NCBI GenBank assembly: GCA_023898465.1
Contig: CP060223.1
Coordinates: 160,001 to 224,000 of the forward strand
Source of the DNA: Candidatus Nomurabacteria bacterium
Lineage (GTDB): Bacteria > Patescibacteriota > Patescibacteriia > HK-STAS-PATE-3
Direction: 5' to 3'
DNA length: 64,000 nucleotides
The notes under the pieces were generated by a model. That model was given only the letters and a program-made list of their open reading frames with translations, had not been told where the DNA came from and searched no databases. The stretch's first letter is position 1; the number at the start of each line of letters is the position of its first letter. A program made the translations under genes and the position numbers. This document shows, piece after piece, positions 19,397-61,504 of the stretch.

Positions 19397-19418
19397 TCAG
19401 AATCTTTGCAGTATTTTC

Positions 19419-20552: not shown

Positions 20553-20563
20553 TCACTATTCAT

Positions 20564-40687: not shown

Positions 40688-40716
40688 TTGACGCTAGGTC
40701 GAGAAAGTGGTAGAAT
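40688..40716 (+). promoter_or_regulatory. Sigma70-like promoter for the paralog operon.
   Basis: TTGACG (40688-40693) is followed by a 17-nt spacer and TAGAAT (40711-40716). It lies in the divergent intergenic region upstream of the 40850 gene. Confidence 0.5.
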
Positions 40717-40849: not shown

Positions 40850-41881
40850 TTGATGCGAATAAATAGTAATTCGCGTCGAAAAAAGCATATTAGTCTGCTC
40901 GTCATTCTTGGAGTGACGATGCTGTTTTTTGGTGTTTCCCAAGCATTTGCGTATTGGACTGAGCCTGATTTACCAGCCCCTGATTCCAGCGTGGGATATC
41001 CGATTTTCCAGGGCAGTGCAAGTGATATTTCTAGCCTTCTCAGTCAAACTAAGACCGGTGGACTCACTATTGGTCCTCCTGGAACTTTAGATATATCAGG
41101 TGGATTAAACACCAGCACTGTTTCTAGCACCTCAAATGTGGTTGTGGACAGTGGCCAGCTCTGTTTAAACGGTTTGTGTATTAGCTCATGGGGTGCGATT
41201 GCGGGAGGATATGTCCATCTGAGCCCTATTTCGGCTGATGCGGGTACGCTTTGGGTGCAGAGTAACAGTTCTGACCCGGCGCTAAACTCAAAGATTATTC
41301 CTAAAAGCAACTTCTTTGGAGTCCGCAGTATTGCCGCAGAGCCAAGTCCAGCTGCTCAGACTGCTGGAATAGCAGGTGATAGTTCAGATCAAGCCTCACC
41401 ACCCGGAGACACTCCCACCTATGGTATCGGTGGCGTGGCGGTTAACATCTCCTTCTGTGTTGGTGGAAGTAACGCCGGCGAGGTGTGTACGGCAAATAGC
41501 GATTGTACTTCAAATGTTTGTACGCCATACGATAAGAGTACGGGTGTATGGGGCTCAAATGGTGGAAATGCGAATGCCTGGGCTGGACGTTTCGATGGTC
41601 GGGTCGGTGTAGAAGGCGAACTTTGTATTAACGGCGATTGTCGCGATGTTTCAAACTGGGGCCCACCTGGTGGGTATAACGATTATGTGCGGGTACAAGA
41701 CAGCGGTGATCCTATTTTCCAAAGCGGTTTGGTAAAAATTCAAGGTACAGTGAAGAGTGGTCAGTTTGTTTTAGGTGCGCCGACTGCCTCCACCTCAATT
41801 TTGTTGACCTGCGGCGATAATCTTTGTAATTACGGTGAAAATGGCGAAAATATTGTAAATTGCGCGGAGGATTGTTCCTAA
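40850..41881 (+). CDS. Secreted protein, short member of the paralog family (N-terminal EPD-motif domain only).
   Basis: Signal peptide, then YWTEPDLPAPD, QLCLNGLCISSWG, and a C-terminal TCGDNLCNYGENGENIVNCAEDCS that matches an internal motif of the 41883 and 47020 proteins. Confidence 0.75.
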   Translation: MMRINSNSRRKKHISLLVILGVTMLFFGVSQAFAYWTEPDLPAPDSSVGYPIFQGSASDISSLLSQTKTGGLTIGPPGTLDISGGLNTSTVSSTSNVVVDSGQLCLNGLCISSWGAIAGGYVHLSPISADAGTLWVQSNSSDPALNSKIIPKSNFFGVRSIAAEPSPAAQTAGIAGDSSDQASPPGDTPTYGIGGVAVNISFCVGGSNAGEVCTANSDCTSNVCTPYDKSTGVWGSNGGNANAWAGRFDGRVGVEGELCINGDCRDVSNWGPPGGYNDYVRVQDSGDPIFQSGLVKIQGTVKSGQFVLGAPTASTSILLTCGDNLCNYGENGENIVNCAEDCS

Positions 41882-41882
41882 T

Positions 41883-43511
41883 ATGCGACATCTTTCCTCC
41901 ATTGGAACGCTGCTTCTCCTCATCATACTAGGGACGACTAATGCTTTGCCTGTGCATGCACAATGGGTCGAACCTGATACTGGTGAATTTCCTACCACCG
42001 GAGGAAGCACGCAAGCGCCTTTAAATACTTCCAACGTAGATCAAACAAAGACTGGATCATTCTTTTTACAGCGCGGCTTAACAGCGGAGAATGGAGTGAG
42101 TTCAAGCGGCGTACTCACGGTACAAAATGGTAATTTGCGTGTTACGCCAGACGGCGGCGGTCAAATTTGTCTCAACGGTGTATGTAAAAGCTCGTTAGAA
42201 ACAAGCTCGGATAACTATGTACGTTTGTCTGCGATTGATCCTGACCTCGGCTTTGTGCTACTCGGTGATGGCTCAACTAACGAAGGTTATTTAGACATTA
42301 GTTCGACCGAAACAATTGGCTTATACGGTATTGCCGGTGATCCTATAACAAAAAACACCTACGGTTTATTGGGTATTGCTGGTGCTGATGATGCTCCGTG
42401 GCCTAATTTTTCAGCCGGTGTTTTTGGTGAGGCTGGTGCAAATACAAGTCAATCGATTGGTTTATCTGGTGTGAGTCCCGATCCAGACGGCCCTGCCTAT
42501 GCAGCCTACTTTAAGGGGCGAGTGAATATTGTGGGATGTCTTGAGTGGAATGGAGGCACTTGCTTAAATGCGTGGCCAAGTGGATTACCAAGCGGTGAGT
42601 ATGTTGCGCTTCTTGAAGATGACGATGAGCCGCAAATAGGAAATATTGATTTATCGACCAGCTCGACAACAGTTTTTACTAGCGTTGTGTTAGGCGATGA
42701 CCCCTCGGGCTTAAGTTTACCTGTGACCTGTGGAGACGGTATTTGCAACAATAGCGAGAGTGGGCTTACTTGTGCGATCGATTGTTTCACCATTATCAAC
42801 CTCCAAGTTACCAATATTACGGATGGCAGTGCTACCGTTACCTGGCGTACGCTGATCAATGCTGATTCATATGTTGAGTATGGATTGACCAGCGATTTTG
42901 GTAGTGATGTATATGATGCCTCGATGGTGACGATGCACTCTTTGCAAATACATAGCTTGAATCATGATACGCATTACTATTTCCGGGTCCGCACAACGAC
43001 CGGCTCGGGCATTTCTCAAACCAGCTCGATACAATCATTCACAACCCTACTTGATCAGACAGCACCTAATGTGCCGGCTAATTTGCGAACTACAACCCCA
43101 GCACCAGATCGAGTGCCATTAGCGTGGTTCCACTCTCAGCTTGATAATCCGGGTGGATCTGGTTTTAAAGAGTTCATTGTTTATCGTGATGGATCACCCT
43201 ACGACACTACCGGTAATACCTACTATGTAGATTATTTCCCAGATCCTGGATATGACCACGTCTATTGGGTGACTGCTGTGGATAATCGTAACAATGAGTC
43301 AGAGGCTTCAAATCCACTTATCGTGCATGTACCAACTCCGTGTATTAGCGACCTTGACTGTACTGATCCGCAGTATCCAGTTTGTTATGGTGCATTGGGG
43401 TGTGGCACACCTCCGCCCGGAGGCTCGCCAGTCATGCTTAAAGAAATTCCCTTAGAGTATTCCCAATATCAGGATCCAGGTGGTTGGGATGAAGGAGGTG
43501 GCTGGTACTAA
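41883..43511 (+). CDS. Secreted paralog with N-terminal EPD-motif domain, FN3 domains, and Cys-rich C-terminus.
   Basis: Signal peptide, then QWVEPDTGEFP, QICLNGVCKSS, TCGDGICNNSESGLTCAIDCF, two FN3-like modules (VTWRTLINADSYVEYG...THYYFRV; ...YWVTAVDNRNNESE), and a C-terminal GGSPVMLKE motif. Confidence 0.8.
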   Translation: MRHLSSIGTLLLLIILGTTNALPVHAQWVEPDTGEFPTTGGSTQAPLNTSNVDQTKTGSFFLQRGLTAENGVSSSGVLTVQNGNLRVTPDGGGQICLNGVCKSSLETSSDNYVRLSAIDPDLGFVLLGDGSTNEGYLDISSTETIGLYGIAGDPITKNTYGLLGIAGADDAPWPNFSAGVFGEAGANTSQSIGLSGVSPDPDGPAYAAYFKGRVNIVGCLEWNGGTCLNAWPSGLPSGEYVALLEDDDEPQIGNIDLSTSSTTVFTSVVLGDDPSGLSLPVTCGDGICNNSESGLTCAIDCFTIINLQVTNITDGSATVTWRTLINADSYVEYGLTSDFGSDVYDASMVTMHSLQIHSLNHDTHYYFRVRTTTGSGISQTSSIQSFTTLLDQTAPNVPANLRTTTPAPDRVPLAWFHSQLDNPGGSGFKEFIVYRDGSPYDTTGNTYYVDYFPDPGYDHVYWVTAVDNRNNESEASNPLIVHVPTPCISDLDCTDPQYPVCYGALGCGTPPPGGSPVMLKEIPLEYSQYQDPGGWDEGGGWY

Positions 43512-46500
43512 TGCGCTATTTCCAACTTCATTTACGTAAACGTTTAACAAATCTGGTGACTTTTGGATTAGCCGTACTTATGCTCGGCGTACTTATGATT
43601 GCTAGCCGTTTCGTAGGTAACGCAAATGCAGAATTTGGACTGACACCACGGTGGTCAACTGAGCCTCATGTGGGAGATAGTTCAGTCTACATTGGTCCAT
43701 GGTCAGCACCGATACAAAACTCTGCTTCCAGTCGACTCTTTGTATATACCGATGATATTCCTGGCGGGGATCGCAATAATTACGTGTTCCGTGTGAACGA
43801 TGATGGTAGCTCAGTGTTAGGAACCAAACTCACTCCAGCGCTAAATGTGGGAACAAACCAGGGAAATAATTTTGGCTTTGTCTCAGATGGTATCGGCGGC
43901 GCTTACGTTGGTTGGACCTCTAACGTTATTGGGGTGGGGTATAACAACGTCATTGCTCGAGTAGGTTCAAGTGGTAATTTGCAGTGGGTGCGTGCAAACA
44001 ATGATGCCGTGGGTGTATCTGAAGTAAACTGGGGACAGTATTTAGCCTCAGACACGAGTGGCAATGCGCTTATTACTTACTTTAAGGGTAGTTCTGTGTG
44101 TGCGATGAAGCTTAGTCGAGCAACTGGTGTGAGTCAGTGGTCATCATCAGCCAATTGTACCGTGGGAGCTCGATCTGCCCGTGAAATTTATCACTCTAGT
44201 TCAAATGCCATTGTGCGAGGCATGATTTCTGATCAACAGGGCGGCATGATTGTGCTACATCGCGATGGCGCAGGAAGCATTTTGCATGCCACTCGAGTAA
44301 ATAGTACTGGTACCGTACTCTGGACAGTAAGCATTACCGATGCTACTGGTGGTTCTCCAACTGGATTAGAATTATTTGCCAAGACTCCAGATACTTTTTA
44401 TGCGATTTGGCGTAAGAGCTCATCAAACTTTATTCAAGCTTTTCACACCTCAGATGGAAGTGCTGCCTGGGTTAACCCCCTCCTCTTTGCTGAATCGAAT
44501 AGCTATGATCCATCAAGTCAATTTGATCGAGCAAAGTTTGTTTGGAGTGGAGCCGATGAGTTGGCCACCGCTTGGCGGCGAACATCTGATAGCGCCCTGG
44601 TAACGAATCGCATTAATGTGGAAACGGGCGCGAAGCGTTGGGCTTCCGACGTTGTAGTGACGACCGAAGCTGAGGATAATAACTATAAAGTGGCAGGGAC
44701 GGCTCAGGGAGTCACCTTCTTTGCCTATTGTCATGATAATGTGCCATCTGATTCAGCACTTTGTGAAATGCAGGGAGTGAGTGCGGGCGGAGCGCTTGTC
44801 TTTTCTGCTGACGGAGTTGATGTTCGACGGAGTAAACCAGATGACATGCAATTCGGTCTGCACACCGTTACTTCATCGACAAGTAACACATATTGTTTGG
44901 ATGAGGGCTTCCGACGTATTGGAGAATCTGTTGGTGCACAAAGTTATTGTCTGAATAGTTTACCTACAGTTTCAGATCCGATTTGTAGTATTGATAACGG
45001 TAGTAATTTTGTACTTTGTTCTGATGCACAACAGGGTTCAACGGTGAGTCACGTGCAAGTAACCTGTGACCCAGGAGATTTTGTCCCACTTTCAGAAGGT
45101 ATGGTAGCAAATACTAGTGGAGTGCACGAGGATTCTGCCTTTATTGAGGGTCGCTATGTGGTATATCGCTATCTTGACTCCGGTCCTCGATGGAAAGTGT
45201 ACGCGTACGATTTAGGTCCTGATCAGCAGTTTGGTACGGGTGATGACCTAGGCACAAAAATTTTGGTGGATGAGGGGAGTATTGATACCTACCCACAAGA
45301 TATTAAGAATGGAAGAATTTTATATTGGCGTTCAGCTGGTGGCACGGCCTCTTTGCGTTTTTATAACCTCAGTGATGACTCGATAGATCCAGGCACCTTA
45401 ACGAGCGTCGCCTTTTCTTCAATTTCTGGCTACGATGGACGCTACTTAGTCTATGCACCTAGCGGCACAACCAACTTGAGTGTGAAAGATTTAGGTGTGG
45501 ACGAGGTGCTCGGTACGGCTGATGACGGGGGAAGCACTCAGCTTAATTCGACGCCCATGGCAAACTATGCCCGGGTGAGTGGACGTTATGCAGTTGGGCA
45601 CTCCACCGGTGGTTTAGATGATATCTATCTCTTCGATCTTACTTCGATTACACAAACACCTGTATATAGCAATGCTTCGGTGCAAGCTGATGTGCCAGAT
45701 ATCCAAGGACGATATATTGCTTGGATGGATTTTCGTAATGATCCAAATGGGTACGATGATGGCAGCGGCACCAGCAATGGCGACATCTTCATTTATGACA
45801 TGGGTCCAGATGAACAATACGGCACCTCTGATGATATCGGTGAATCACAAATCAGCGCCTCGGCGAAAAAAGATAGCTCACCGCGGATTGCCGGTACAAA
45901 GATTCTCTGGCATCAAACACAGAATGGCGGCGCGTCCGATGCAAATCAAAACGTTATGATGTACGACCTCGGACCGGATGGTGAATATGGTACGGCCGAC
46001 GATACTTCAGAAACCCAATTAACCAATAGTCTTAATAATGAATACTGGCCACGCGGAGATGGTGAGAACATTGTTTGGTTAAGCGATCAAAACGGTCCAG
46101 CAAATACCGATATTTTTATTACACCAGCTGGAATTGGTGCTGCATCAATAAGCGAAGTTCGCTTCACTATGACTGCGCCATCTGGTACGCGTTATGTTGA
46201 TCAAGTAGCTGGTGAGGTGAATGCTTCAACGTATACTCTTTATTACCCTGAGCTCATTGACGAAGAGGGGCAGTGGACGGTACAAGCCACTTGTGAAGAT
46301 GTGGCTGGACAAACAGTGCAGCGTGAAAGTATTTGGGATGTTGGACCTTGGCCTTTTAGTGATCAGCAAAAACTTTCTGTCTACGACGGAGTAGCGCAAA
46401 TTTCTAAGAATTCCGGTGATACGATGGAGATAGGTAATGCTGGACGCGATATTACCTCGAATGGAAATATTTACATCCGCCCGAATAACAGTTACGCGGG

Positions 46501-47020
46501 AGCGTACTTCGAAGGCGTAGCTTCAACTGGATCGCAGCGACTCCATCTACCCTATGGTGTGCCAGGTCAACACACTGTCTTTGCCAAGGGCACAGGTACG
46601 GTAAATAGCGCAGATGGTGCGAGTGGAATTGCAGGAATTTTTACAGGACTCTCTAATAATGCAGGTGGCAGTGGGGTTTACGGTGATGTAATGAGTTGTG
46701 CAAGCAGCGGTGGATGTGCCGCAGGGTATTTCCAGGGTGGAGATCAGATTGGCCTCTACGCCTCGACAAACAATGCCTCTTTACCAGCCCTACGAGCAGA
46801 AAACGCTGCCACACCAAATGCATCTACGCTGAATATGTCCGCACTCTTTACGGGTAAGGTGCAAGTGAGTCAGGACCTCTCCGGTTCATTTAGCCCTGAT
46901 GCCTGTGTATGGGTGACGGTAGACGTGGGCGATACTGTGTGTCCAAACGAAGGCTTTGTCTTTGGTTACGATAGCACCAGTTTCGGAGTAGCTGATAAAC
47001 TTTATTGTTGCGGAAACTAA
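43511..47020 (+). CDS. Large secreted or membrane-anchored paralog of 1169 aa, with repeat units and the shared C-terminal YCC domain.
   Basis: An N-terminal TM/signal is followed by EFGLTPRWSTEPH. There are four repeats of about 45 aa (D[LM]G[PV]D..[YL]GT.DD.G). The last ~230 aa are homologous to the 48686 and 49461 proteins and end in LYCCGN. A TAATG stop/start overlap joins it to the previous gene. Confidence 0.8.
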   Translation: MRYFQLHLRKRLTNLVTFGLAVLMLGVLMIASRFVGNANAEFGLTPRWSTEPHVGDSSVYIGPWSAPIQNSASSRLFVYTDDIPGGDRNNYVFRVNDDGSSVLGTKLTPALNVGTNQGNNFGFVSDGIGGAYVGWTSNVIGVGYNNVIARVGSSGNLQWVRANNDAVGVSEVNWGQYLASDTSGNALITYFKGSSVCAMKLSRATGVSQWSSSANCTVGARSAREIYHSSSNAIVRGMISDQQGGMIVLHRDGAGSILHATRVNSTGTVLWTVSITDATGGSPTGLELFAKTPDTFYAIWRKSSSNFIQAFHTSDGSAAWVNPLLFAESNSYDPSSQFDRAKFVWSGADELATAWRRTSDSALVTNRINVETGAKRWASDVVVTTEAEDNNYKVAGTAQGVTFFAYCHDNVPSDSALCEMQGVSAGGALVFSADGVDVRRSKPDDMQFGLHTVTSSTSNTYCLDEGFRRIGESVGAQSYCLNSLPTVSDPICSIDNGSNFVLCSDAQQGSTVSHVQVTCDPGDFVPLSEGMVANTSGVHEDSAFIEGRYVVYRYLDSGPRWKVYAYDLGPDQQFGTGDDLGTKILVDEGSIDTYPQDIKNGRILYWRSAGGTASLRFYNLSDDSIDPGTLTSVAFSSISGYDGRYLVYAPSGTTNLSVKDLGVDEVLGTADDGGSTQLNSTPMANYARVSGRYAVGHSTGGLDDIYLFDLTSITQTPVYSNASVQADVPDIQGRYIAWMDFRNDPNGYDDGSGTSNGDIFIYDMGPDEQYGTSDDIGESQISASAKKDSSPRIAGTKILWHQTQNGGASDANQNVMMYDLGPDGEYGTADDTSETQLTNSLNNEYWPRGDGENIVWLSDQNGPANTDIFITPAGIGAASISEVRFTMTAPSGTRYVDQVAGEVNASTYTLYYPELIDEEGQWTVQATCEDVAGQTVQRESIWDVGPWPFSDQQKLSVYDGVAQISKNSGDTMEIGNAGRDITSNGNIYIRPNNSYAGAYFEGVASTGSQRLHLPYGVPGQHTVFAKGTGTVNSADGASGIAGIFTGLSNNAGGSGVYGDVMSCASSGGCAAGYFQGGDQIGLYASTNNASLPALRAENAATPNASTLNMSALFTGKVQVSQDLSGSFSPDACVWVTVDVGDTVCPNEGFVFGYDSTSFGVADKLYCCGN

Positions 47021-48681
47021 TGCATTCAAAACTACGCATCTCAATTTTCTTTCTCGCTACAATCATTGTAGGAACCTTTGCTTTCAGGGCGATGGCTTTT
47101 ATCGAGCCGGATGATTTCCCGCCCAGTGATACAACGAGCGCACCAGTATTGACTGGTCCACAGGATCAGACTCGTCAGGGACCCCTGACAGTGCAAGGCA
47201 ACGTTAGCGCTTCCGGACCTTTAATTACTCGTGATAGTGAAATCGTTACCTCCGGTGATGTTACGGTGAGCGGTGGTGCTTCAATTTGTTTGAATGGAGA
47301 TTGTATTAACGCATGGACAGCGGCACTTGGTGATTTTGTTCGTCTCTCGCCACCGTCATCTGACGACGGATATATTCACTTGCAAGGTGGGGCTACTTTC
47401 CAAGCTGCCACTGACGCTGACTTTGCTCTATATTCTCGCGCCATTGCTCCGACAGCTAGTGCGAGTTATGGCTTTTATGGCAAGTCTTGGACTGGTCCAG
47501 TTACGAATAACTATAGCTACGGCGTACTTGGAGTGGCAGCTCATGAGGGAATAAATCCCGGAGCCCTAGCTTATGGCATTTTTGGCTGGAATGGAGATAA
47601 CCTCAATGCCTATGCAGGCTATTTCACTGGGAATGTTCAGTTAGTGAATAACTCGGAACTTTGTCTGACTGATGGTTTCACTATTGACTGTCGAACCACT
47701 TGGCCAAATGGAGCACCGGGCGAAGAATTTCTCCTCTTACAAAATACTTGGCCTACTTCAAGTCAGATTGGAAACACCGCGGTGAGTGGAAATGCGCAAT
47801 TTGCGAATGCGCTGTTGGGTGATCCGGGCGCCGGCACTCTTACCTGTGGCGACGGATTTTGTTCCGAGGATGCGATCAGTTGTCCAATTGACTGCCCGAC
47901 GATAACGAACATCGATGCGGAGTGGCTGACCTCTAGCAGCGCCCAGTTTACCTGGACTTCAAATACGACGATGACCTCAGTAGTTCAGTTTGGTCTTTCA
48001 GATCTCTATGGTGGACAAGACATTGACGGTTCATATGTCACAAGTCATTCAATCACCATTGAGGGCCTAGATAGCGATCAGGATTATCATTACCGCGTTG
48101 GTGGTCTGACGGAAAATTCTGGTGCAGCTGTGTTTTCCTCAGATCAAATATTGTCAGCCAGCGTGGTTGATATTGATCCTCCGCCAGTTCCGAGTGGATT
48201 AGTACTTGATGTGCATATTCCACCTCCATCTCCAACAGAAATCATCGACTTAACCTGGGCTCATGATTTGAGCGATAACCCAGTGGGTGGAAGTGGTTTT
48301 AAAGAATTTCATATCTATCGATTAGACTGGTCAGTTGGTCCTCCCTTTGTAATGATTGGCACCACCACCGATTTGAATTTCATTGATGATTCAGGGGATT
48401 TGAGTCAGACAAATGATTATACCTATAGTGTCACTGCAGTGGATAATAATGGCAATGAGTCAGATCCTTTCGAGCGAGCAGTGCACATTCCAGCGAGGTG
48501 TTCTTTTGATGTGGAATGTGGCGTTGATCCGGGATATCCTTTCTGCTGTACATGGAATGAAGGTGATAAAGCCTGTAGCGCAACTTCTTGTAAAGGAGGC
48601 GGGTCTCCAATTATGTTGAAGGAAGACCCTCCGCCATTAGGGCCACCTCCATGTAACGGTCCTGATTGTTATGGACCATAA
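47020..48681 (+). CDS. Secreted paralog with N-terminal EPD-motif domain, FN3 domains, and Cys-rich C-terminus.
   Basis: AFIEPDDFPPSD, SICLNGDCINAWT, TCGDGFCSEDAISCPIDCP, FN3 modules (ITNIDAEWLTSSSAQFTWTSN...YHYRV; YTYSVTAVDNNGNESD), and a C-terminal GGSPIMLKE motif. The start is at the TAATG overlap (the tracked 47005 start is 15 nt upstream). Confidence 0.8.
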   Translation: MHSKLRISIFFLATIIVGTFAFRAMAFIEPDDFPPSDTTSAPVLTGPQDQTRQGPLTVQGNVSASGPLITRDSEIVTSGDVTVSGGASICLNGDCINAWTAALGDFVRLSPPSSDDGYIHLQGGATFQAATDADFALYSRAIAPTASASYGFYGKSWTGPVTNNYSYGVLGVAAHEGINPGALAYGIFGWNGDNLNAYAGYFTGNVQLVNNSELCLTDGFTIDCRTTWPNGAPGEEFLLLQNTWPTSSQIGNTAVSGNAQFANALLGDPGAGTLTCGDGFCSEDAISCPIDCPTITNIDAEWLTSSSAQFTWTSNTTMTSVVQFGLSDLYGGQDIDGSYVTSHSITIEGLDSDQDYHYRVGGLTENSGAAVFSSDQILSASVVDIDPPPVPSGLVLDVHIPPPSPTEIIDLTWAHDLSDNPVGGSGFKEFHIYRLDWSVGPPFVMIGTTTDLNFIDDSGDLSQTNDYTYSVTAVDNNGNESDPFERAVHIPARCSFDVECGVDPGYPFCCTWNEGDKACSATSCKGGGSPIMLKEDPPPLGPPPCNGPDCYGP

Positions 48682-48685
48682 GTAT

Positions 48686-49459
48686 ATGCAAATGCAAAAA
48701 CATCAATTCGTACTAATATTTGGAACTGTGCTTTTCTCTGCTCTCTTCCTGGTCAGTAGTGCCTTGCCTGAAAAAGGGTATGCGGCTACACCTTTTGGAG
48801 GAAACAGCAATAAGCGCTTGTCTATTTATAATGGTACTTTATTACTTGATGGTAGCGCACAATTGCGCTTAGGTAATGCCGGTCGCGATATTCAAGCAAG
48901 CGGGACTCTGTATCTGCGTCCTGATGGAAGCGCGCGTGGCTCCTTCTTCAGCGGTGTTACCAATGATGTTGGTCAGCGCCTTTCATTAACTGGCGGCATT
49001 AGTGGCAGTGATACTATCCAAGCCTCCTGGATCGGAACGAATGGAGTAGACGAAACTCGAGGCGCGGTCACTGGTTATTTCCACGGCGCTCCTGATAGTG
49101 CGGTTGGTGCCGCAATTTTTGGTGAAGTACAATCATGTGGTGTTGGGCAAACCTGTTACGCTGGTTACTTTGCCGGTGGCCAAAGCACAGGAGTGCAAAC
49201 GTATACGGCGACAAATCCAAACGGTGGAGCTACTCCTGCTTTGCAAGTATTAAATGCTGATGCAAATGGCGTAGCCGCTTCCTTTACCGGTAATGTGCAG
49301 ACAAATCGGCTTATTCTCGATAATAATACTCGTTCTGCGTGTACCTGGGAGTCGGTAAGCGGTGCAGAATTAGTCTGCCCTAGCGGAAAATTATTAGCCG
49401 GTGTCCGAGCGAGTAATACAGACCCAGTCATTTCTGATATTTATTGTTGTGAGCTGTAA
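48686..49459 (+). CDS. Secreted protein made up essentially of the shared YCC domain alone.
   Basis: Signal peptide, then LSIYNGT, GNAGRDIQASGTLYLRPDGS, QTCYAGYFAGGQ, and a C-terminal CPSGKLLAGVRASNTDPVISDIYCCEL. The start is chosen just after the upstream stop. Confidence 0.75.
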   Translation: MQMQKHQFVLIFGTVLFSALFLVSSALPEKGYAATPFGGNSNKRLSIYNGTLLLDGSAQLRLGNAGRDIQASGTLYLRPDGSARGSFFSGVTNDVGQRLSLTGGISGSDTIQASWIGTNGVDETRGAVTGYFHGAPDSAVGAAIFGEVQSCGVGQTCYAGYFAGGQSTGVQTYTATNPNGGATPALQVLNADANGVAASFTGNVQTNRLILDNNTRSACTWESVSGAELVCPSGKLLAGVRASNTDPVISDIYCCEL

Positions 49460-49460
49460 T

Positions 49461-51716
49461 ATGCAATTCCCGCGATTACATAAACTACACATTTTAAGCG
49501 CGATGTTCATCGCAGTGCTTGGTTTAGGTGTCGCAGTTGGTGCCTACACCTATTCAAACTGGACTCGACAGCAAAAAGGAGCCGAGAATACGAGCGCTAG
49601 TACTGATAATGGTCCAACCGCGAACGTGGTGCAGGGGACGGTGTCGGGTTGTGTAAGCGGTACCACGCAAACGGTTGATTGGACGATGGTACGAGATGGA
49701 GAGCTTATCGTTGTTGCACATTCTGAGTCACAGGAAAAACTTTGCATTTATGATTATAACAGCGTTGCCACTTCACCGATTCGACAATATGACATGACTC
49801 AATCCGAGCGAAGTCCGGTTGTGGTAGGGGATGTGCTCTATCGAGTCAAAAAAGGCTTAAGTCCAATTCAAGTAGAGGCACGTTCACTCATCGATGGATC
49901 AGTGCTGTGGACAAAAACGATTAGCTCAACTGCGGTGGGTAGTACTTACAATGTAATAACCGCAGCTAATGGCAATCTCTATATCGGAGCGAAATTTAAT
50001 GGATCCGAGCAGAGAGTGCTCGCACTGCAGCAGATTGATGGTCAGCTGTTATGGATGCGCACTATTGAGCCAAGCTTTGGCTTTTCGACCAGCGTTGAAC
50101 AGCTTGGCGCCTTAGCAGTTAGTAGTGATCAAGTGTTTATCCAATTTGTTGAAGGTTCGCTGTCTGATGGTCGGGTTGGTTATCGTGCGCTTAATGCGAG
50201 TACTGGAGCCGTGAACTGGACTGCCGGTCCTTATGGTTCCGGAGTGATTCGGACCAGAGCGTCACTAATTTACGCTGATAATGCTATTTATGCTGCGCCT
50301 GATGCATATATTTCTCTCAGTTCAGCTACTGGAAATCAAACCTGGAATCAAGCAATGGCAGCTACGAATGAGGCCTTAAGTATCGCCTATAGCAGCACTA
50401 AGGTGTACTACTCCGAGCGACGAAGCACGCAATACGCCTATCTCGCTCGAAGTGCTATAAACGGCGGTTTGTCATGGACAGCTGGAAATTATAACGGCTC
50501 TATTGGTGATGGTCCCCTTGTCGTAGTAAATAACAACTTCCTATATCACTGCGCAAATAGTACCTTGCGAGGCATTTCCACTGTGACTGGTTTTGTTACG
50601 TTCACGGGAGTTGCGCCCACCTTCTGCAATGCCGCTGCAGTATATAATGGAATATTGTATGTGAATGGTAATGCCGGCTCAGTAGACCAAGGTAAAGTGC
50701 GTTTAATCGCAAATACTTTGCCCGCAAGCGCTACAACAACAGTTGGTGTGCCGACATGTAGCATTGATAATGGTTCTAATTACGTTGATTGCGCGAACTT
50801 ACAATATGGCGCGATTGTGACACATGCTCGGACAACCTGTACGAGTACTGCAGGAGTAAAAGAGGTGCAGTTCACCTTAACAGGGCCCGCCGGTACACAA
50901 TACTCCTCAGTAAAAGCACAAACAGTCGTCGGTGCTACCTATACTACACATGCGCCGGGAACGCTCGTAGGTAGTGGGCAATGGACCCTGACGGCAAAGT
51001 GCGTGAATAGCATTAATGAGAGTACATCGAATCAAAAGATTTGGACTGTTGGATCTGCTCCAAGTGAAGGATCTCAGAAGCTTTCTATTTACGAAGGAAG
51101 CGCTCGCTTTACTGATGGTGAGACTATGGAAGCGGGTGCGCTCAGCGGAGATGCAAATATCGACTGGATTGGCTCTGATAGTATTTATGTTCGTCCAAAC
51201 ACTTCAAACGGTTCTTCATTCTTCCAAGGTGTTTCAGCACTTGATCGGCAAAGCCTCTATTTAAGCGGCGGCATTAATGCGAAACCAAGCTTGGAAGCAG
51301 TTGGTTTAGGACAAAATGGAGTACCGTACCTAGGCTCTGCTATTGCCTCAACTTTTGATGGGGCTAGTTTTTCCTCCGGTGGCGGTGCAATTTACGGAGG
51401 AGTGAGTAGTTGCGGGGCAGGGAAAACTTGCTACGCAGGATACTTCAATAACAGCTCCGAAACTGGCTATGGTATTCTCGTTACGAATAACTCCGCGTCG
51501 CAACCTACGCTTCGGGCGGAAAATTTAGCCGGTGGCACTGCAGCCAATTTCGTGGGCGTAGCTAAGGTGAGTGGCGATCTACAGGCAGATAATAATACGG
51601 TGAATAGTTGTACCTGGACACCAGTGAGTGCAAAAGAATGTCCGGCTGGGACTGTCGCCTCTGGTATGCGATTTAGCGGAGGAGTGGTGAGCGAATATAA
51701 TTGTTGTAGTCTCTAA
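49461..51716 (+). CDS. Secreted paralog with a beta-propeller-like N-terminal region and the shared C-terminal YCC domain.
   Basis: Signal/TM, then a region of about 450 aa, then LSIYEGS, IYVRPNTSNGS, KTCYAGYFNNSS, and a C-terminal ECPAGTVASGMRFSGGVVSEYNCCSL. Confidence 0.8.
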   Translation: MQFPRLHKLHILSAMFIAVLGLGVAVGAYTYSNWTRQQKGAENTSASTDNGPTANVVQGTVSGCVSGTTQTVDWTMVRDGELIVVAHSESQEKLCIYDYNSVATSPIRQYDMTQSERSPVVVGDVLYRVKKGLSPIQVEARSLIDGSVLWTKTISSTAVGSTYNVITAANGNLYIGAKFNGSEQRVLALQQIDGQLLWMRTIEPSFGFSTSVEQLGALAVSSDQVFIQFVEGSLSDGRVGYRALNASTGAVNWTAGPYGSGVIRTRASLIYADNAIYAAPDAYISLSSATGNQTWNQAMAATNEALSIAYSSTKVYYSERRSTQYAYLARSAINGGLSWTAGNYNGSIGDGPLVVVNNNFLYHCANSTLRGISTVTGFVTFTGVAPTFCNAAAVYNGILYVNGNAGSVDQGKVRLIANTLPASATTTVGVPTCSIDNGSNYVDCANLQYGAIVTHARTTCTSTAGVKEVQFTLTGPAGTQYSSVKAQTVVGATYTTHAPGTLVGSGQWTLTAKCVNSINESTSNQKIWTVGSAPSEGSQKLSIYEGSARFTDGETMEAGALSGDANIDWIGSDSIYVRPNTSNGSSFFQGVSALDRQSLYLSGGINAKPSLEAVGLGQNGVPYLGSAIASTFDGASFSSGGGAIYGGVSSCGAGKTCYAGYFNNSSETGYGILVTNNSASQPTLRAENLAGGTAANFVGVAKVSGDLQADNNTVNSCTWTPVSAKECPAGTVASGMRFSGGVVSEYNCCSL

Positions 51717-51717
51717 T

Positions 51718-54700
51718 ATGGCATTTGTACAACGACATTCACGAGCACTATTTATCAGTATATTCGCAACACTTGTTATAGTGGCTGCTGGACTTCTTAT
51801 TGCAAAGGTTAGTTTTGCTGGGCTCGAGTGGGAGCCGCAAAAACCTCCAGAAGTATATCAGAATAACAGTAGCATCGACTTCTATAAAGTTGATTTCCAA
51901 CAAAACCCCAGCGATAATAAATACTATGGTTGGGTGGTAGGTGAGGACTTAAGCGGTAAACAATCAAGCCTCCTTTACTTTAATGGCGCTTTTTGGAAAT
52001 CAATTACCGACGACGGTTTGGGTGCGGGGTCGACATCGGACCTCTTTGATGTTTCCGCTGTTTGGAATTCAGATATTGATCAGTATCTTGTTTGGGCAGT
52101 AGGGGAAAATCAAGCGCTCTGGTATTTAACTGACAGCGAGACTGTGTGTAATAGTGAAGCTATCCCATGTCCTGATAGTCCAGCTGGAGCTGTGACTTTA
52201 AATTCGGTTGAAGGTGCTTGGTATAGCGGAGATGATAAAGTTGCCTTTTTTGTAGGTGATAACGGGCACATTTATCATGCAGTGGCTGATGATTACCAAA
52301 GCGCATTCGCCTACACCGCAGCATTTGCTACGAGCGGGACCATCCGCGATATTGATTCTTTTGACGCTGCACATACTTGGGCAGTATCAAGTGATGGCAA
52401 GATATATTTTAATAGCGATTATCTGACAAACTCGTGGGTGCAACAAGCCTCTTTCCCAGGCATTGATTTTACAGGAGTGTCAGCGGCAGATGCCAGCCAC
52501 GTATGGGCTTCGGCAATTAACGGCACAAAAGGTCAAATTTATTTTTACGACGGGTCCACCTGGTCGCTCCAATTCACTACAGTGCTTGATATTCCGCTTC
52601 ATGATGTGAGTGCATTTTATAATCCTACTTTATCTATTTATAATGCCTTTGCGGTTGGTGATATTGATTCCTCTACAGGCAACGGAGGTGTTTATCAATA
52701 TAATGGTACAATTTGGGAACGGCAGGATTCAAATAATAATGGTGAAGTATTACGCGGCATTTCTGCTGCCAGCCTTATTGAGATACGAGCCGTTGGTGCG
52801 AACACCACACTCTTAACCAGCTCACCGGGAAATATATTTGGTTGGATTTGGCTAGGATCAAGCACAAGTAATGGAAGTGGCGATGCGCTGGGATGGGGAA
52901 GCGGAAGCTGCGCTAATCTTGATAGTTGTGAAAGTGCTGGCTTTACTTACGGCGTAAACATCCGCCGCAGTGGCACCAGTCAAGGTGCTTTGTCTGGTTA
53001 CTTTTGGCTAGGGAATGCTGATCCGGATGCTTATATTCCAAATGACTGTGACACCGATCCAGGCGTCGAAGCTTGTCAATCTAATTCGAGCATTAGCTGC
53101 ACTACTGATTTTGAATGTCGTTGCGCTATTAATTCAGCAGCTTGTTTTTCAACTGGTTGGATGTCGTTTAACAAAAAAGGCTCGGATGGTGTGACTGATG
53201 AGGCTGGCACACCTCCAGCTGCACCGTACAATGATGGTGCGCAAAACTATATTGCTCGATTTGATGCAAAGACGGGTAAGGTAACTGGCTGGGCTCGTTT
53301 ACTTTCCTTATACGAAGATCCAAGCACTGGTGGCTGGATTCGTTTGCGAGGGAATGCAGTTACTCCGAATGTAGGTGACTTACCAGTCCGAGACTGTAAA
53401 AATTGTGGCAAATTCTGCAGTCTCGACACTACGTATAAGTGTACAGTTGACGCTGACTGTAATGTAGACGCAGACGGTGATGGAACAGATGAAAACTACG
53501 GCCCGTGTAATGTGAGTGTTTGTAAGATTTGTAATGCTTTAAATGATGAAACAATCGTTTCTGCAAACATGTGCTCAAATACCGGCGGCACCTCATGTAC
53601 GCGACGTTGTGAGCTTAACAACAGTATTACCTGTACCGATGATGCAGATTGTATAGGATTTGGCTCATGTGTGAATGAGACTTTTTGTGATTCTTGTGTG
53701 ACCTATGACCAATATGGTGTAGCGATTGATGACGCAACTGGTAAGATTACCGGCTATGCTTGGAGTGGCGCGTCTACTACATATGGTCAACTTGGCTGGA
53801 TTGATTTTAATCGAGCAAACTATTATAGCCAGGCTTGGTTACAGACCCAATTTGGGAATATCTACGCTCAAGCTGATATCGGTAGCGTTGGTACGCCAGC
53901 TGCTCCAGAGGGTAAATGTAATGCGACATACGTGATTAGTGCAGCTGGTACCATCACTAACTTCTGTTCGCGCTACGAAGAAATCGATCCAACCGCCCCG
54001 CCAGGGGACTACACCACTCGCCCCTTCATCCAGCAAAACTACGATGAAATTTATTATCCAACCGAGGCAAATAACTATACGAACGTCCTAGGAAAATTGG
54101 ATCCAGATGCTCTGGTGCAGGATGTGGGCGCTGGAAAAAATAAATATGGCGATGAAATCATTACGGTAAACAGCGATGCTGATTTACTTGACCTTGGCTT
54201 GTGTGATGCTGACGGAGTAACGCTTGATGGCAAGGTATATCATGTGGTTGGAAATCTCAGTATCGGTGTCTGTAATCCTGGTAGCGGTGATGTTACTGAA
54301 TTGATTATTAAGAATTCTTCACTCGCCAGTGGGTCAGGGACAATAGTGGTTGATGGTAATCTCACCATTGATATGAATATAAGCTACGAACAAAGTTCAA
54401 TCTCTAATATTAGAGATTTGGCCTCCCTGGGTGTGATGGTGAAGAAAAATATGATAGTGACTGGTGATGTAGATTCAATCGTCGGCTCCTATATCGTCTT
54501 TGGAACCGATGAGACAGAAGCTAATAAATTTAGTGGAATTAAGATTGAAAACTCCTTAATCGAACGCTCCTTTAGTGCGCAAGGTCTCATGATCGCCCGA
54601 GGCTTCAAATTCGAGCGCACATATCGTGGCACCTTAATCGATCCACAACCAGCTGAGCAGGTGGTATACGATGGACGGGTGATTGCAAATACGCCGCCAG

Positions 54701-54756
54701 GATTCCGTGATTTTGCGAAAGTCTTACCAGTTATTCGAGAAACCATACCTTTTTAA
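51718..54756 (+). CDS. Large membrane-anchored secreted Cys-rich protein (1012 aa) with an N-terminal EPQ motif.
   Basis: An N-terminal TM is followed by GLEWEPQKPPE. The middle is Cys-rich (CKNCGKFCSLDTTYKCTVDADCNVDADGDG...) and the C-terminus is beta-helix-like. It is the last gene of the paralog operon. Confidence 0.75.
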   Translation: MAFVQRHSRALFISIFATLVIVAAGLLIAKVSFAGLEWEPQKPPEVYQNNSSIDFYKVDFQQNPSDNKYYGWVVGEDLSGKQSSLLYFNGAFWKSITDDGLGAGSTSDLFDVSAVWNSDIDQYLVWAVGENQALWYLTDSETVCNSEAIPCPDSPAGAVTLNSVEGAWYSGDDKVAFFVGDNGHIYHAVADDYQSAFAYTAAFATSGTIRDIDSFDAAHTWAVSSDGKIYFNSDYLTNSWVQQASFPGIDFTGVSAADASHVWASAINGTKGQIYFYDGSTWSLQFTTVLDIPLHDVSAFYNPTLSIYNAFAVGDIDSSTGNGGVYQYNGTIWERQDSNNNGEVLRGISAASLIEIRAVGANTTLLTSSPGNIFGWIWLGSSTSNGSGDALGWGSGSCANLDSCESAGFTYGVNIRRSGTSQGALSGYFWLGNADPDAYIPNDCDTDPGVEACQSNSSISCTTDFECRCAINSAACFSTGWMSFNKKGSDGVTDEAGTPPAAPYNDGAQNYIARFDAKTGKVTGWARLLSLYEDPSTGGWIRLRGNAVTPNVGDLPVRDCKNCGKFCSLDTTYKCTVDADCNVDADGDGTDENYGPCNVSVCKICNALNDETIVSANMCSNTGGTSCTRRCELNNSITCTDDADCIGFGSCVNETFCDSCVTYDQYGVAIDDATGKITGYAWSGASTTYGQLGWIDFNRANYYSQAWLQTQFGNIYAQADIGSVGTPAAPEGKCNATYVISAAGTITNFCSRYEEIDPTAPPGDYTTRPFIQQNYDEIYYPTEANNYTNVLGKLDPDALVQDVGAGKNKYGDEIITVNSDADLLDLGLCDADGVTLDGKVYHVVGNLSIGVCNPGSGDVTELIIKNSSLASGSGTIVVDGNLTIDMNISYEQSSISNIRDLASLGVMVKKNMIVTGDVDSIVGSYIVFGTDETEANKFSGIKIENSLIERSFSAQGLMIARGFKFERTYRGTLIDPQPAEQVVYDGRVIANTPPGFRDFAKVLPVIRETIPF

Positions 54757-54762: not shown

Positions 54763-54791
54763 TTGCGACAGAGTAAGAAAAATGCTATAAT
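54763..54791 (+). promoter_or_regulatory. Near-consensus sigma70 promoter upstream of pilM.
   Basis: TTGCGA (54763-54768) is followed by a 17-nt spacer and TATAAT (54786-54791), about 45 nt upstream of the pilM ATG. Confidence 0.55.
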
Positions 54792-54838: not shown

Positions 54839-55927
54839 ATGGGTTTATTTAACAAAAAAGAAAGCTATCTCGGGATTGATATCGGCACTTCTAGTATTAA
54901 AGTGTCTGAATTCAGAAACGAAGAAGGTCGTCCGCGCTTGTTAAGTTATGGCTTTGTCGAGCAACCAAGCGAGGTTTTAAAAAGCGATTCACCCGAAGCA
55001 ATCCAGCAAGTGGTGACTACCTTGTTAGGTGTGTTTAAAAAGGGCCATATGCAAAGCCGCAAAGTGGTTTCGGCTCTGCCTAGCTACGCAGTTTTCACAT
55101 CGATTTTGAGCTTGCCAGTAATGCCGAAGAAGGATTTATACTCGGCAATTCGCTGGGAGGCAAAAAAAATCGTCCCAATGTCCCTCGATGAAATGGTGCT
55201 AGACTGGCGCTTACTCCATGACCCAGAAGAGGCGACTGATGAAAAAGGTAAAAAGAGCAAAAAGGATCAAATAAGCAGTGGAGGTCCTAAAAATACCCGT
55301 GTGCTCATTACGGCAGCTCCAAAAAACTTAGTTAAACGTTACATTGATATATTTAAACTGGCTGAGCTCGAAATCGTCAGCCTAGAAACCGAGTCATTTG
55401 CCCTTGTTCGTTCACTTCTTGGACGAGATAATTCCACAGTGATGGTGGTGGATATCGGGGCAATTGCCACGGAAATAAGCGTTATACTCGATGGTATACC
55501 TTTTCTCAATCGAAGTATCGACGTAGGGGGAGAAACTATTACGAAATCAATAGCCAATAGTCTCAATATTGATGCAGAACGCGCTGAGCAAATTAAGCGC
55601 GACTTTGGCGTTATGAGTGGGCCGAGCACGAGTCAGATTCCTCGGGTTATTGAATTTGTCATGCAGAATATCGTGAATGAGATTCGCTATATTTTATCGA
55701 TGTATCAAAATCAGGGCGAAAAGCCAATTGAAAAAATTGTGTTGTCTGGTGGATCAGCCTTCCTGCCCAATTTGCCTAGCTATCTCGAGCAGATGATTAA
55801 GCTCAAATGCTATATTGGAGATCCGTGGGCTCGAGTAGTCTACCCAGTAGAATTAAAGCCAGTGCTAGATGAGATTGGACCACGCTTTGCCGTGGCAAAT
55901 GGTCTAGCCATGCGTGAAATTGTGTAA
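54839..55927 (+). CDS. pilM: Type IV pilus assembly protein PilM (actin-like ATPase fold).
   Basis: The N-terminus LGIDIGTSSIKVSEF is typical of PilM. An acetate/sugar-kinase fold signature is present (VVDIGAIATEISV...LSGGSA). Confidence 0.85.
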   Translation: MGLFNKKESYLGIDIGTSSIKVSEFRNEEGRPRLLSYGFVEQPSEVLKSDSPEAIQQVVTTLLGVFKKGHMQSRKVVSALPSYAVFTSILSLPVMPKKDLYSAIRWEAKKIVPMSLDEMVLDWRLLHDPEEATDEKGKKSKKDQISSGGPKNTRVLITAAPKNLVKRYIDIFKLAELEIVSLETESFALVRSLLGRDNSTVMVVDIGAIATEISVILDGIPFLNRSIDVGGETITKSIANSLNIDAERAEQIKRDFGVMSGPSTSQIPRVIEFVMQNIVNEIRYILSMYQNQGEKPIEKIVLSGGSAFLPNLPSYLEQMIKLKCYIGDPWARVVYPVELKPVLDEIGPRFAVANGLAMREIV

Positions 55928-55930
55928 TCT

Positions 55931-57244: not shown

Positions 57245-57909
57245 AAATCTTCGGCAAAAGCTTCACTGAATTCTTAATTGAGCAATACCGCTATGTATTA
57301 GTGGCGGTTGCGCTTATACTTGCTTTGGTCGGCTATCTGGTGTTTATTGGACCGGAATTGCAAGAAGTCCGTCGTTTCGGTACAGCTGACTTAAAAGATG
57401 AGAAATCGAAATTAGAAGATCGGAAAACCTATTTGACTCGTTTACAGGGCATGCTTGATGCCTATAGTACGCTGAATCAAAATAGTTTAAGCGAGTTAGA
57501 GGGGGTGCTACCGACCTATGAAGATATCCCTGACCTCTTCATTATTGTAGAGGACTTGGCCAAGCAGAGTGGCTTATCACTCAGTTCTGTTTCTATTAAT
57601 CCGGCGAATTTAGAATCCGAATCAAGCGCAGCCGGTGCAAGTACAACATCGCTGAGTCAGTTGGCTAAATCAAAGAACTTAAAAGCCTTTGACATCTCAG
57701 TGACGGCTATTAATGGTACTTCATACGAAGATTTCAAAGACTTTATTACGAATATCGAAAATAGCAACCGCCTGTTTGATGTGCGATCTATGCAGTTTAC
57801 GCCGGAGCCGCGTCAGTCAGCTGACCGTACGAGTGAGACCTCAGCTGCTACGACTCCGTACTCAATCAACTTGCGCACTTATTATATTGACGGTGAGGAG
57901 GCTTCCTAA
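57241..57909 (+). CDS. pilO: PilO-like pilus assembly protein.
   Basis: A 222-aa ORF with an N-terminal TM (YVLVAVALILALVGYLVFIG), a coiled-coil, and a periplasmic domain. It occupies the PilO position in the pilMNO order. Confidence 0.6.
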   Translation: MKIFGKSFTEFLIEQYRYVLVAVALILALVGYLVFIGPELQEVRRFGTADLKDEKSKLEDRKTYLTRLQGMLDAYSTLNQNSLSELEGVLPTYEDIPDLFIIVEDLAKQSGLSLSSVSINPANLESESSAAGASTTSLSQLAKSKNLKAFDISVTAINGTSYEDFKDFITNIENSNRLFDVRSMQFTPEPRQSADRTSETSAATTPYSINLRTYYIDGEEAS

Positions 57910-57912
57910 GCT

Positions 57913-58206
57913 ATGGCACTGGTACAGAAAAGCAATAAAAAGAGCGTCACTATTTTACTCAGCGTCCTGGTCGGTGTCACGGTGATTGGTTTACTTGTGT
58001 ATTTCCTGGTTATCGCTCCACCGGATGTTGATCCAAATGTGAATACCTCCAATAATATTGTGCAGAGAGATTTGCCAATCTACACTACCTTTGGCGAAGA
58101 CTTGTTTGATGATCCGCGTTTCCGCGCCCTCGTGCCCTATGGTGATCTGCCGGTTGATCTAGGTGACGTGGGGAGGACTAACCCATTTGAGAAGCCATCC
58201 CCATGA
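57913..58206 (+). CDS. Small single-TM protein of the pilus operon.
   Basis: A 97-aa ORF with an N-terminal TM (VTILLSVLVGVTVIGLLVYFLVIA). It is translationally coupled, overlapping pilB by 4 nt. Confidence 0.5.
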   Translation: MALVQKSNKKSVTILLSVLVGVTVIGLLVYFLVIAPPDVDPNVNTSNNIVQRDLPIYTTFGEDLFDDPRFRALVPYGDLPVDLGDVGRTNPFEKPSP

Positions 58207-59984: not shown

Positions 59985-60009
59985 TTTTGCCAATAATTTT
60001 ATTACGCCT

Positions 60010-60420: not shown

Positions 60421-60421
60421 C

Positions 60422-61498: not shown

Positions 61499-61504
61499 TT
61501 ACTT

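Follow-up and report, generated by a model that had tools for sequence, protein, structure and literature searches.

What is the role of the seven genes for putatively exported proteins found directly upstream of the type IV pilus (T4P) operon of Candidatus Nomurabacteria? A large part of bacterial diversity is accounted for by the Patescibacteria; the T4P is their best-supported attachment and motility organelle, and its host-recognising cargo is largely unknown outside a few Saccharibacteria. All the cultivated members of the group live attached to other microbes (PMC11623550). The window analysed here (the whole stretch of 64,000 nucleotides, contig CP060223.1, positions 160,001 to 224,000) contains seven open reading frames (ORFs) that fill the interval 40850-54756 of the + strand, and which will be called g1 to g7. 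They had been described in the first-pass annotation as one family of secreted proteins with an invariant EPD motif at the mature N-terminus, possibly associated with the pilus. The answer that we propose, to which we give about an even chance, is that g1-g7 constitute a fast-evolving accessory adhesin island of the T4P system of this bacterium. Two conserved elements carry this proposal: an N-terminal module of ~35 residues in g1, g2 and g4 (N-module), and a family of proteins with GWI repeats, to which g7 belongs. The functional link with the pilus is supported mainly through g7: GWI genes are located at pilus genes in ~12 of 19 loci, N-module genes stand beside a GWI gene in 24 of 59 loci, and the layout is present in seven relatives.

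The N-terminal module of g1, g2 and g4

The ATG starts of the seven genes (40853, 41883, 43511, 47020, 48686, 49461, 51718) leave spacings of 1, -1, -1, 4, 1 and 1 nt, in agreement with the tight packing initially described; two of the three TAATG stop/start overlaps then listed were found (g2/g3 and g3/g4), and three other junctions read TAA-T-ATG. Signal peptides had been attributed to all seven proteins, and a rule-based check was positive in 7/7 (charged n-region, 12-residue hydrophobic core with a mean Kyte-Doolittle value of 2.5-2.95, AXA-type site); judging from these sequences, the products are probably exported by Sec and cleaved by signal peptidase I. The single family was not maintained: all-against-all BLASTP groups g1/g2/g4 (family A) and g3/g5/g6, which have in common only a C-terminal domain (family B), and leaves g7 apart from both. 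Families A and B were not treated as homologous, hhalign giving only a weak local match near YAGYF (probability 16%). Searches of g1-g7 against Pfam, NCBIfam and PHROGs gave nothing beyond FN3-type matches and TIGR04275 repeats, and sequence searches of the PDB (family A and family B profiles; g3, g6 and g7 sequences) gave no match. Other classes of exported proteins were discarded: pilins (the class III signal G/[FM]xxxE, the slash marking the cleavage site, matches only the pilin genes at 62902 and 63562, and N_methyl, PF07963, has no match in g1-g7); sortase or exosortase substrates (no LPXTG with transmembrane (TM) helix and basic tail, the C-termini being soluble and Cys- or Pro-rich); and lipoproteins, considered and rejected.

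The predicted cleavage sites of family A are AFA/YWTEPD (g1), VHA/QWVEPD (g2) and AMA/FIEPDD (g4), which places the motif at mature position +1/+2, as had been claimed. The "EPD motif" of these proteins is a divergent copy of the N-module, A/W-x-E-P-x3-PPGGN-x3-P-L-N-x-S-x3-Q-x-K-x-G-x-L, whose canonical form is A/W-T-E-P-T-x-x-P-P-G-G-N-V-A-A-P-L-N-x-S-x-x-x-Q-T-K-x-G-x-L. The copies are located at 40952..41068 (+) in g1 (YWTEPDLPAPDSS...LSQTKTGGL, beginning at the predicted mature residue +1), 41961..42068 (+) in g2 (QWVEPDTGEFPTTGGSTQAPLNTSNVDQTKTGS) and 47098..47193 (+) in g4 (FIEPDDFPPSDTTSAPVLTGPQDQTRQGPL). A hidden Markov model (HMM) of the N-module, trained on 60 canonical sequences from other, unrelated genomes and run on the 141 ORFs of the window, matched g4 (E 1.8e-7), g2 (4e-7), g1 (3e-5) and nothing else; g3, g5, g6 and g7 did not score. 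The motif had been attributed to five proteins: it stands for g1, g2 and g4, whose orthologues in two relatives (L003, L004) keep it ([FY]W[ST][EA]P, xW[VN][ED]P and F[IVN]EP, respectively), and falls for g3 and g7, the EP of g3 (WSTEPH) being replaced in the same relatives by QWDPPLY and FWATPPA, and that of g7 (LEWEPQ) by LEWEVQ and LDWEIQ.

A word-indexed homologue search with the N-domain of g4 returned one truncated protein. It took an exhaustive profile search, run with the N-domain of family A, to reach 484 cluster representatives (89 at E <= 1e-10), whose N-termini consist of a signal peptide with the N-module straight after it; the module stands at mature +1 in hundreds of Patescibacteria protein clusters. 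Anchoring on [WFYIV]-x-x-P was possible for 110 N-termini, among which position 1 is W (50), F (28) or Y (15), position 3 is E in 62, and exactly 23 residues separate the first residue from the Q of QxKxG in 57. Within family A, conservation is highest in the N-module (P38, Q65 and G69 at least 90% conserved), and EPD, initially taken as the invariant core, was found in 7 of the 150 best relatives. The DNA pattern for WTEPxxxPPGGN occurs in 64 stretches of 185,579 species genomes (596 Gb; by our estimate ~1 expected by chance), nearly all of them in Patescibacteria metagenome-assembled genomes (MAGs), three being chance matches. The motif is conserved in homologues elsewhere, W following the AXA of the signal peptide directly in 66 of 70 canonical instances; the refuting condition set in the first-pass annotation (cleavage sites out of line with the motif, and no motif in homologues of other genomes) does not hold. 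Pfam and NCBIfam have no model covering the N-module, no relevant paper on the motif string was found in the literature, and the canonical pattern had no match in 2.9 million viral contigs. Genuine N-module genes were also observed on contigs of MAGs labelled Gammaproteobacteria, Pirellulales or Bdellovibrionales (L016, L026, L063, L068), probably as a result of mis-binning or mislabelling; those of L026 are accompanied by pilins, by a GWI gene and by the gene of a small TM protein described below.

In an AlphaFold2 model of g1 the N-module has no secondary structure (block-mean predicted local distance difference test, pLDDT, 47-61); being conserved and yet modelled without structure, it would behave as docking peptides often do. 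Because relatives combine the N-module with collagen-like GXY repeats (L053 runs straight into them; L034 and L037 also carry them) or, in one case, with a Peptidase_S74 tail-fibre chaperone domain, their sequences suggest fibrous, probably oligomeric, modular surface proteins. The C-terminal region of L007 resembles a phage tail-collar domain by eye only, with no match in Pfam, and L010 (157 aa) joins the N-module to the C-terminal Cys module of family B.

Family A proteins have in common the N-domain of ~300 aa. The short form is g1 (40853..41881, +; 342 aa; 40-46% identity with its orthologues), which consists of the signal peptide, the N-module and a Cys-containing domain of ~300 aa ending TCGDNLC...CAEDC. 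The long forms are g2 (41883..43511, +; 542 aa: signal peptide, N-module, A-domain, FN3 region, and Cys-rich tail with GGSPVMLKE) and g4 (47020..48681, +; 553 aa from the ATG overlapping the g3 stop codon), the Cys-rich tail following FN3 in both. The previously noticed [LI]CLNGxC and TCGDGxC...C..DC are invariant across the three proteins. As for the FN3 pairs reported in g2 and g4, one FN3 / Pur_ac_phosph_N domain was confirmed in each by Pfam (g2 aa 305-388, 3.8e-9; g4 aa 303-369, 2.9e-6), and the second unit gave PHROG and weak matches only. GGSP[IV][MV]LK recurs near the C-terminus, after the Cys-rich stretch, in g2 (43440-43470), g4 (48610-48640) and orthologues (variants GGSPVMLKE, GGSPIMLKE, GGSPVVLKE and SSPIMAKG; SSPIMKK in P0001).

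GWI-repeat genes, pilus loci and the conservation of the island

The last gene of the row, g7 (51718..54756, +; 1012 aa), encodes a large non-pilin with a type I signal peptide and no prepilin motif, in which N-terminal propeller-like repeats, GWI repeats with Cys-rich inserts (52792..53829, +; HMM, aa 359-546 and 655-704: GNIFGWIWLG, STGWMSFN, VTGWARL, GGWIRLRG, GYAWS...GQLGWIDFN) and a C-terminal region of ~390 aa, which is conserved, can be distinguished. A GWI HMM built from 23 independent sequences matched g7 (E 1e-24) as the sole ORF of the window. The family, defined by G[WY]AWSxNIGWIxF-type repeats, has at least 751 proteins at E <= 1e-5 and is annotated at NCBI only as "PKD domain-containing". 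The ending P-x-W-x-E-x-x-P, typically LPxWKEVKPE, is present in 68 of 120 GWI proteins; the C-terminal tail of g7 (54718..54753, +; FAKVLPVIRETIPF region) is a variant of LP-x-[WI]-x-E-x-x-P, ending LPVIRETIPF with I replacing W (LPRIREEIPF, LPKISEVSP, LPDLKAVTP and LPNVQEFAP in orthologues). The model of one GWI member (pLDDT 87; predicted template modelling score, pTM, 0.72) contains an N-terminal membrane helix, a beta-rich GWI domain, an Ig domain and a PKD domain, and its final 12 residues have no structure. The terminal W-x-E-x-x-P of GWI proteins (P0161-P0280) resembles the start of the N-module, W-x-E-P, which may be a coincidence or reflect a common binding partner.

A metagenome scan seeded with the g7 alignment gave 19 GWI loci. 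The GWI gene stands between pilD and minor pilin genes, or directly before pilM/N/O, in ~12 of them, and prepilin genes are immediately downstream in 10. Two loci (L077, L087) show the order pilB-RR (response regulator)-pilT-pilC-pilins-(membrane or glycosyltransferase-like genes)-pilD-GWI-three minor pilins-fourth small gene. The gene 5' of GWI is a peptidase A24; the three minor pilins 3' of it have N_methyl matches and weak GspH, PilV and GspJ matches; and the fourth small gene, which has no family match, we take to be a K-like minor pilin solely from its position and its N-terminus. A g7-like gene directly precedes pilMNO-pilB-RR-pilT-pilC in L072, and a giant GWI gene precedes pilN/O-like genes in L074; g7 itself lies before pilM, not among minor pilins.

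All the ORFs of the 61 genuine N-module loci (at most 8 kb fetched per locus; counts are given over 59 loci) were clustered. Only two families recur far above background, the commonest housekeeping family reaching at most 7 loci: GWI, and a small single-pass membrane protein (KKSLxYL, TM helix, acidic tail, EEILxSLTAP). A GWI gene occurs in 24 loci, in each case on the strand of the N-module gene, and is separated from it by less than 300 nt in 15; the small membrane protein is encoded on the same strand less than 300 nt upstream of the canonical N-module gene in 21 (L054:781-1077(-), L023:429-674(-), L007:674-967(+) and ~18 other loci). The small-TM gene and the N-module gene come directly after pilin or minor pilin genes in six loci other than those with the conserved layout described below, and the cassette directly after minor pilins in L018, L023, L026, L054 and L055. 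The KKSLxYL family is absent from the window. Since g7 is the sole GWI match there, the cluster is an expanded form of this widespread N-module and GWI cassette.

The pilus operon lies right downstream, as previously indicated (54839..63168, +: pilM, a pilN-like gene (437 aa), pilO, a 97-aa membrane protein, pilB, a response regulator, pilT, pilC and a pilin). The island occupies the same position in seven relatives (L003, L004, L070, L072, L092, L093, L094); in the six in which pilM is visible, PilM identity to the window is 75%, 70%, 58%, 58%, 58% and 54%. Their layout is ClpB-HtpX-LemA-small TM protein, island, pilM, and in its full form (N-module gene or genes first, giant GWI gene last, then pilM) it was found in L003, L004, L070, L093 and L094. 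The content of the island is A A B A B B GWI in the window, L003, L004 and L092 (whose contig stops within the GWI gene and does not reach a pilM); A A A GWI in L094; an A-like gene with no N-module match, then A, two B-like genes and GWI in L093; and A, one unassigned gene and GWI in L070. The L072 contig begins inside the GWI gene, with pilM next. The island therefore varies from 3 to 7 genes, with N-module genes at or next to its start wherever the start is visible; its last gene is always a giant GWI gene with a form of the conserved tail, and a g7-type gene is always the last before pilM. Orthologous island proteins are 37-54% identical versus 68-75% for PilM/PilB, a faster divergence that, at the level of sequence, is typical of exposed proteins.

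Within family B, the C-terminal domain of ~230 aa ends YCCxL/N. The longest member, g3 (43511..47020, +; 1169 aa; BLASTP), is built of a signal peptide with no N-module, beta-propeller-like repeat regions (TIGR04275-type), an Ig-like CSIDNGSNFV segment and the family B domain (46322..47017, +; KLSVY...GNAGRDI...YAGYF-like...CxW...CPxG...YCCGN); the N-terminal pattern conserved among its orthologues is [FY]xLxPxWxxP, not EP. A signal peptide and the family B domain are all that g5 contains (48686..49459, +; 257 aa, or 262 aa if the ATG at 48671 is used), and g6 (49461..51716, +; 751 aa) comprises a signal peptide or anchor, a repeat-rich N-region, an Ig-like segment and the family B domain (~51018-51713), its orthologue in L002/L003 carrying a PQQ_2 beta-propeller. 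The extreme C-termini of the three proteins (47005-47017, 49445-49456, 51702-51713) fit [YFN]-x?-C-C-x-[LN], and this type of ending is also seen on short N-module proteins (LYCCGI in L010, IECCGK in L017, LFCCK in L011).

Other features of the window were recorded. A promoter-like site (TTGACG-17-TAGAAT with TG, 40688..40716, +) lies in the 174-nt divergent intergenic region before g1 and another (TTGCGA-17-TATAAT with TG, 54763..54791, +) in the 82-nt gap between g7 and pilM, which contains no terminator-like hairpin; the first is a consensus match only, and sites of this kind are no more numerous in the region than in shuffles, but 40688..40716 falls in one of only two intergenic gaps. Divergent from g1 is the gene of a fast-evolving 172-aa single-pass membrane protein (40160-40678, -). 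A gene of 156-183 aa stands between lemA and the island in L003, L004, L070, L071, L092, L093 and L094, with BLASTP homology to the 172-aa protein confirmed for L003 and L004 only. The 97-aa single-pass membrane protein encoded between pilO and pilB (57913-58206, +; ending ...GRTNPFEKPSP) has counterparts at the same position in L004 (60% identity), L072 (47% over 49 aa) and L070 (33%) and no Pfam or NCBIfam family; it may be an unnamed component of the Patescibacteria pilus machine, and by the profile it does not belong to the KKSLxYL family. The stand-alone response-regulator receiver gene between pilB and pilT (59953-60420, +) is part of a pilB-RR-pilT order also found in the unrelated Patescibacteria loci L054, L055, L072, L077 and L087. 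A second pilin gene (MKKGFTLIELLVVIAIIGVLS..., ~63553-64000, +) runs off the window. Further upstream, two giant secreted proteins with FN3 and Big_7 domains (33-4469, 4432-9123) are encoded ahead of a type IV secretion-like cluster of the candidate phyla radiation (CPR) type (9127-23636, +: TrbL/VirB6-like of 1072 aa, VirB4-like of 659 aa, two T4SS_pilin proteins, one of them fused to an SLT transglycosylase); this cluster and the ClpB, HtpX and LemA genes of the window are typical CPR features.

What the island may do and what else may explain it

The anatomy of the genes, their membership in families, the conserved motifs with their positions and the counts of gene neighbourhoods are shown by the analysis; in the adhesin island that we propose, we infer signal cleavage, docking, a pilus-tip location and an adhesin role for g1-g7. 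The g7 protein would be a functional analogue of PilC/PilY1 by position and logic, not by homology, and would join the minor-pilin tip or priming complex, perhaps by its conserved C-terminal tail. The N-module of g1, g2 and g4, probably extended, would be the docking element onto the GWI protein or the pilus tip complex; these three proteins, probably oligomeric and fibre-like, would bind the host or a surface with their variable distal parts (A-domain, FN3, Cys-rich tail), and g3, g5 and g6 would supply this assembly with head domains of the beta-propeller and YCC-ended types.

Several observations weigh against this proposal. Four of them keep our confidence at an even chance. First, T4P gene families appear each in only 4-5 N-module loci (8 loci in total) and the commonest housekeeping families reach 7; T4P families being no commoner there than housekeeping ones, the link of the N-module with the pilus is largely indirect, through GWI. 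Second, ~51 of the 59 canonical N-module loci (~87%) have no T4P gene in the stretch fetched. Third, the fibre-adjacent and the pilin-adjacent GWI genes may be different paralogues. Fourth, the ClpB-HtpX-LemA flank is conserved too, and the adjacency to pilM could therefore be inherited synteny with no function. In addition, N-module genes are multi-copy and dispersed (four loci in the DAOVPY01 MAG, four in the JAHIOY01 MAG), the promoter-like site before pilM suggests that pilM is transcribed separately, the window stops before the minor pilins and pilD of this genome, the PilY1 domain (PF05567 / IPR008707) had no Pfam match at E <= 0.1 in g7 (nor in g3 and g6), and the AlphaFold2 model of g1 (45-sequence alignment; pLDDT 60, pTM 0.31) is too poor to be used.

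The main rival reading makes the proteins pilus-independent surface fibres or adhesins, the N-module being the base of a fibre fixed to the envelope through the small upstream membrane protein or a GWI platform, and the adjacency to pilM being synteny only. We consider this possible, though somewhat doubtful. The scarcity of T4P genes around canonical N-modules, their several dispersed copies per genome and the equally conserved LemA/HtpX/ClpB flank speak for it, as do the small-TM gene upstream of the N-module in 21 of the 59 loci and the collagen-like repeats and tail-fibre chaperone domain of relatives. It is opposed by the location of GWI genes between pilD and minor pilins in many lineages, by the five loci with the cassette right after minor pilins, and by the island itself, whose content varies from 3 to 7 genes and yet whose two ends (an N-module gene; a giant GWI gene before pilM) are fixed.

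Extending the adhesin island to the whole group, one may tentatively propose a two-part T4P decoration of the Patescibacteria's own. GWI would be a non-homologous counterpart of PilC/PilY1 that plugs the minor-pilin tip via W-x-E-x-x-P; the N-module would be a universal docking tag by which a large and rapidly diversifying repertoire of fibre adhesins, probably oligomeric, is loaded onto this tip complex (families in the hundreds, with several in each genome); and the seven-gene island would be an expanded version hard-wired to pilMNO. This wider proposal is speculative.

Docking itself may be questioned: the N-terminal motif could instead serve a dedicated enzyme, such as a specialised signal peptidase, a modifying enzyme or a sortase-like transpeptidase, that reads it for processing or sorting. 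That W, E and P are near-invariant at +1, +3 and +4, with 66 of the 70 instances directly following the signal peptide, and that the spacing to QxKxG is fixed at 23 residues would suit such an enzyme, but no recurrent peptidase, sortase or transferase was found among the clustered ORFs of the 61 N-module loci (only GWI and the small-TM protein recur), the conservation covers ~35 residues, far beyond known cleavage-site signals, and there is no C-terminal LPXTG-plus-TM; we judge this explanation unlikely.

A further variant keeps the pilus machine and changes its product: the pilus would act as a secretion device with g1-g7 for substrates, in the manner of TcpF and CofJ, the mature N-terminus being the export signal and release instead of display the outcome. 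Patescibacteria are generally regarded as having no outer membrane to cross, pilMNO and pilT indicate a system like type IVa pili (T4aP) and not type IVb pili (T4bP), and fibre-like architectures favour display over release. An extended N-terminus acting as export signal and binding tip minor pilins does have a precedent (10.64898/2026.09.18.752573), and the N-module is conserved yet modelled unstructured; we nevertheless find secretion quite improbable. A prophage or tailocin remnant encoding tail fibres, for which the Peptidase_S74 of one relative and the PHROG tail-protein matches of the g2 FN3 regions might be quoted, is close to refuted by the failure of the canonical pattern to match any of the 2.9 million viral contigs, the signal peptides on all seven proteins, the lack of phage genes in the window and the stable chromosomal position among relatives.

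Neither the concept of a tip adhesin that has a terminal peptide nor that of an N-terminal docking signal is new. What is new are the N-module and GWI families, which have no curated model nor, within the searches made, any literature, and which occur in a group not expected to possess non-pilin tip proteins. If our proposal is true, tip functionalisation would have a third solution, in the form of a large family of non-pilins whose genes stand between pilD and the minor pilin genes and whose terminal peptide is conserved. With the N-module (484 family A cluster representatives) and GWI (at least 751 proteins) defined, thousands of proteins now labelled "hypothetical" or "PKD domain" would receive a new annotation, and both modules would supply concrete candidates for host recognition and short peptides suited to binding assays.

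Comparison with known systems

A first comparison is with PilC/PilY1, the tip adhesins of T4aP in Neisseria, Pseudomonas and Myxococcus, whose last ~10-12 residues, according to two studies of 2026, are disordered in isolation and anchor the adhesin at the pilus tip by beta-strand addition to PilK (10.64898/2026.09.18.752573; PMC13533445). Like PilC/PilY1, GWI proteins and g7 are large non-pilins with a type I signal peptide and a variable adhesin part; the GWI family is encoded with core minor pilins (pilD-GWI-H/V/J/K-like) and has a short conserved peptide at the extreme C-terminus, unstructured in the monomer model. What the model shows of this tail agrees, by analogy, with published work on the PilC/PilY1 plug. 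The differences are as follows: GWI and g7 lack the PF05567/IPR008707 beta-propeller (no PF05567 match in canonical GWI proteins at E <= 0.01) and are built instead of GWI repeats with Ig and PKD domains or, in g7, of propeller-like repeats and a large uncharacterised C-terminal region; g7 precedes pilM instead of standing with the minor pilins; and the host is commonly counted with the monoderm-like bacteria, whose T4aP are said to lack PilC/PilY1 (10.64898/2026.09.18.752573) and, as stated in recent work, to use modular pilins in its place.

The idea, present in the first-pass annotation, that the conserved N-terminus is a sorting or docking element gains from the PilC/PilY1 C-terminal plug and from a second precedent (10.64898/2026.09.18.752573; PMC13533445): the cargo proteins of T4bP bind the tip minor pilins through an extended mature N-terminus (10.64898/2026.09.18.752573). 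Such cargo (CofJ, TcpF) and the N-module proteins are Sec-exported non-pilins, and in CofJ/TcpF this N-terminus engages the pilus tip. In contrast, the sequences are unrelated, the system here, which has pilMNO and pilT, is T4aP-like, and the N-module has ~35 aa and is carried by many paralogues, often fibre-like.

Phage tail fibres and endosialidase-type trimeric fibres share with the relatives of family A the collagen-like GXY repeats or Peptidase_S74 and, by eye, one tail-collar-like end. They differ in that family A has signal peptides, a cellular context and no viral match of the canonical pattern, and g1, g2 and g4 are free of collagen-like, Peptidase_S74 and tail-collar parts.

A comparison within the Patescibacteria is with PilX1 and PilX2 of the Saccharibacteria strain TM7x, and it is made by description only: they are described as lollipop-shaped and pilin-like, with no W-x-E-P module reported. 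Like g1-g7, they are Patescibacteria proteins of a pilus locus, devoid of a PilD-type signal and carrying large accessory domains that include a beta-propeller, and they have been proposed as tip adhesins needed for host binding (PMC11623550).

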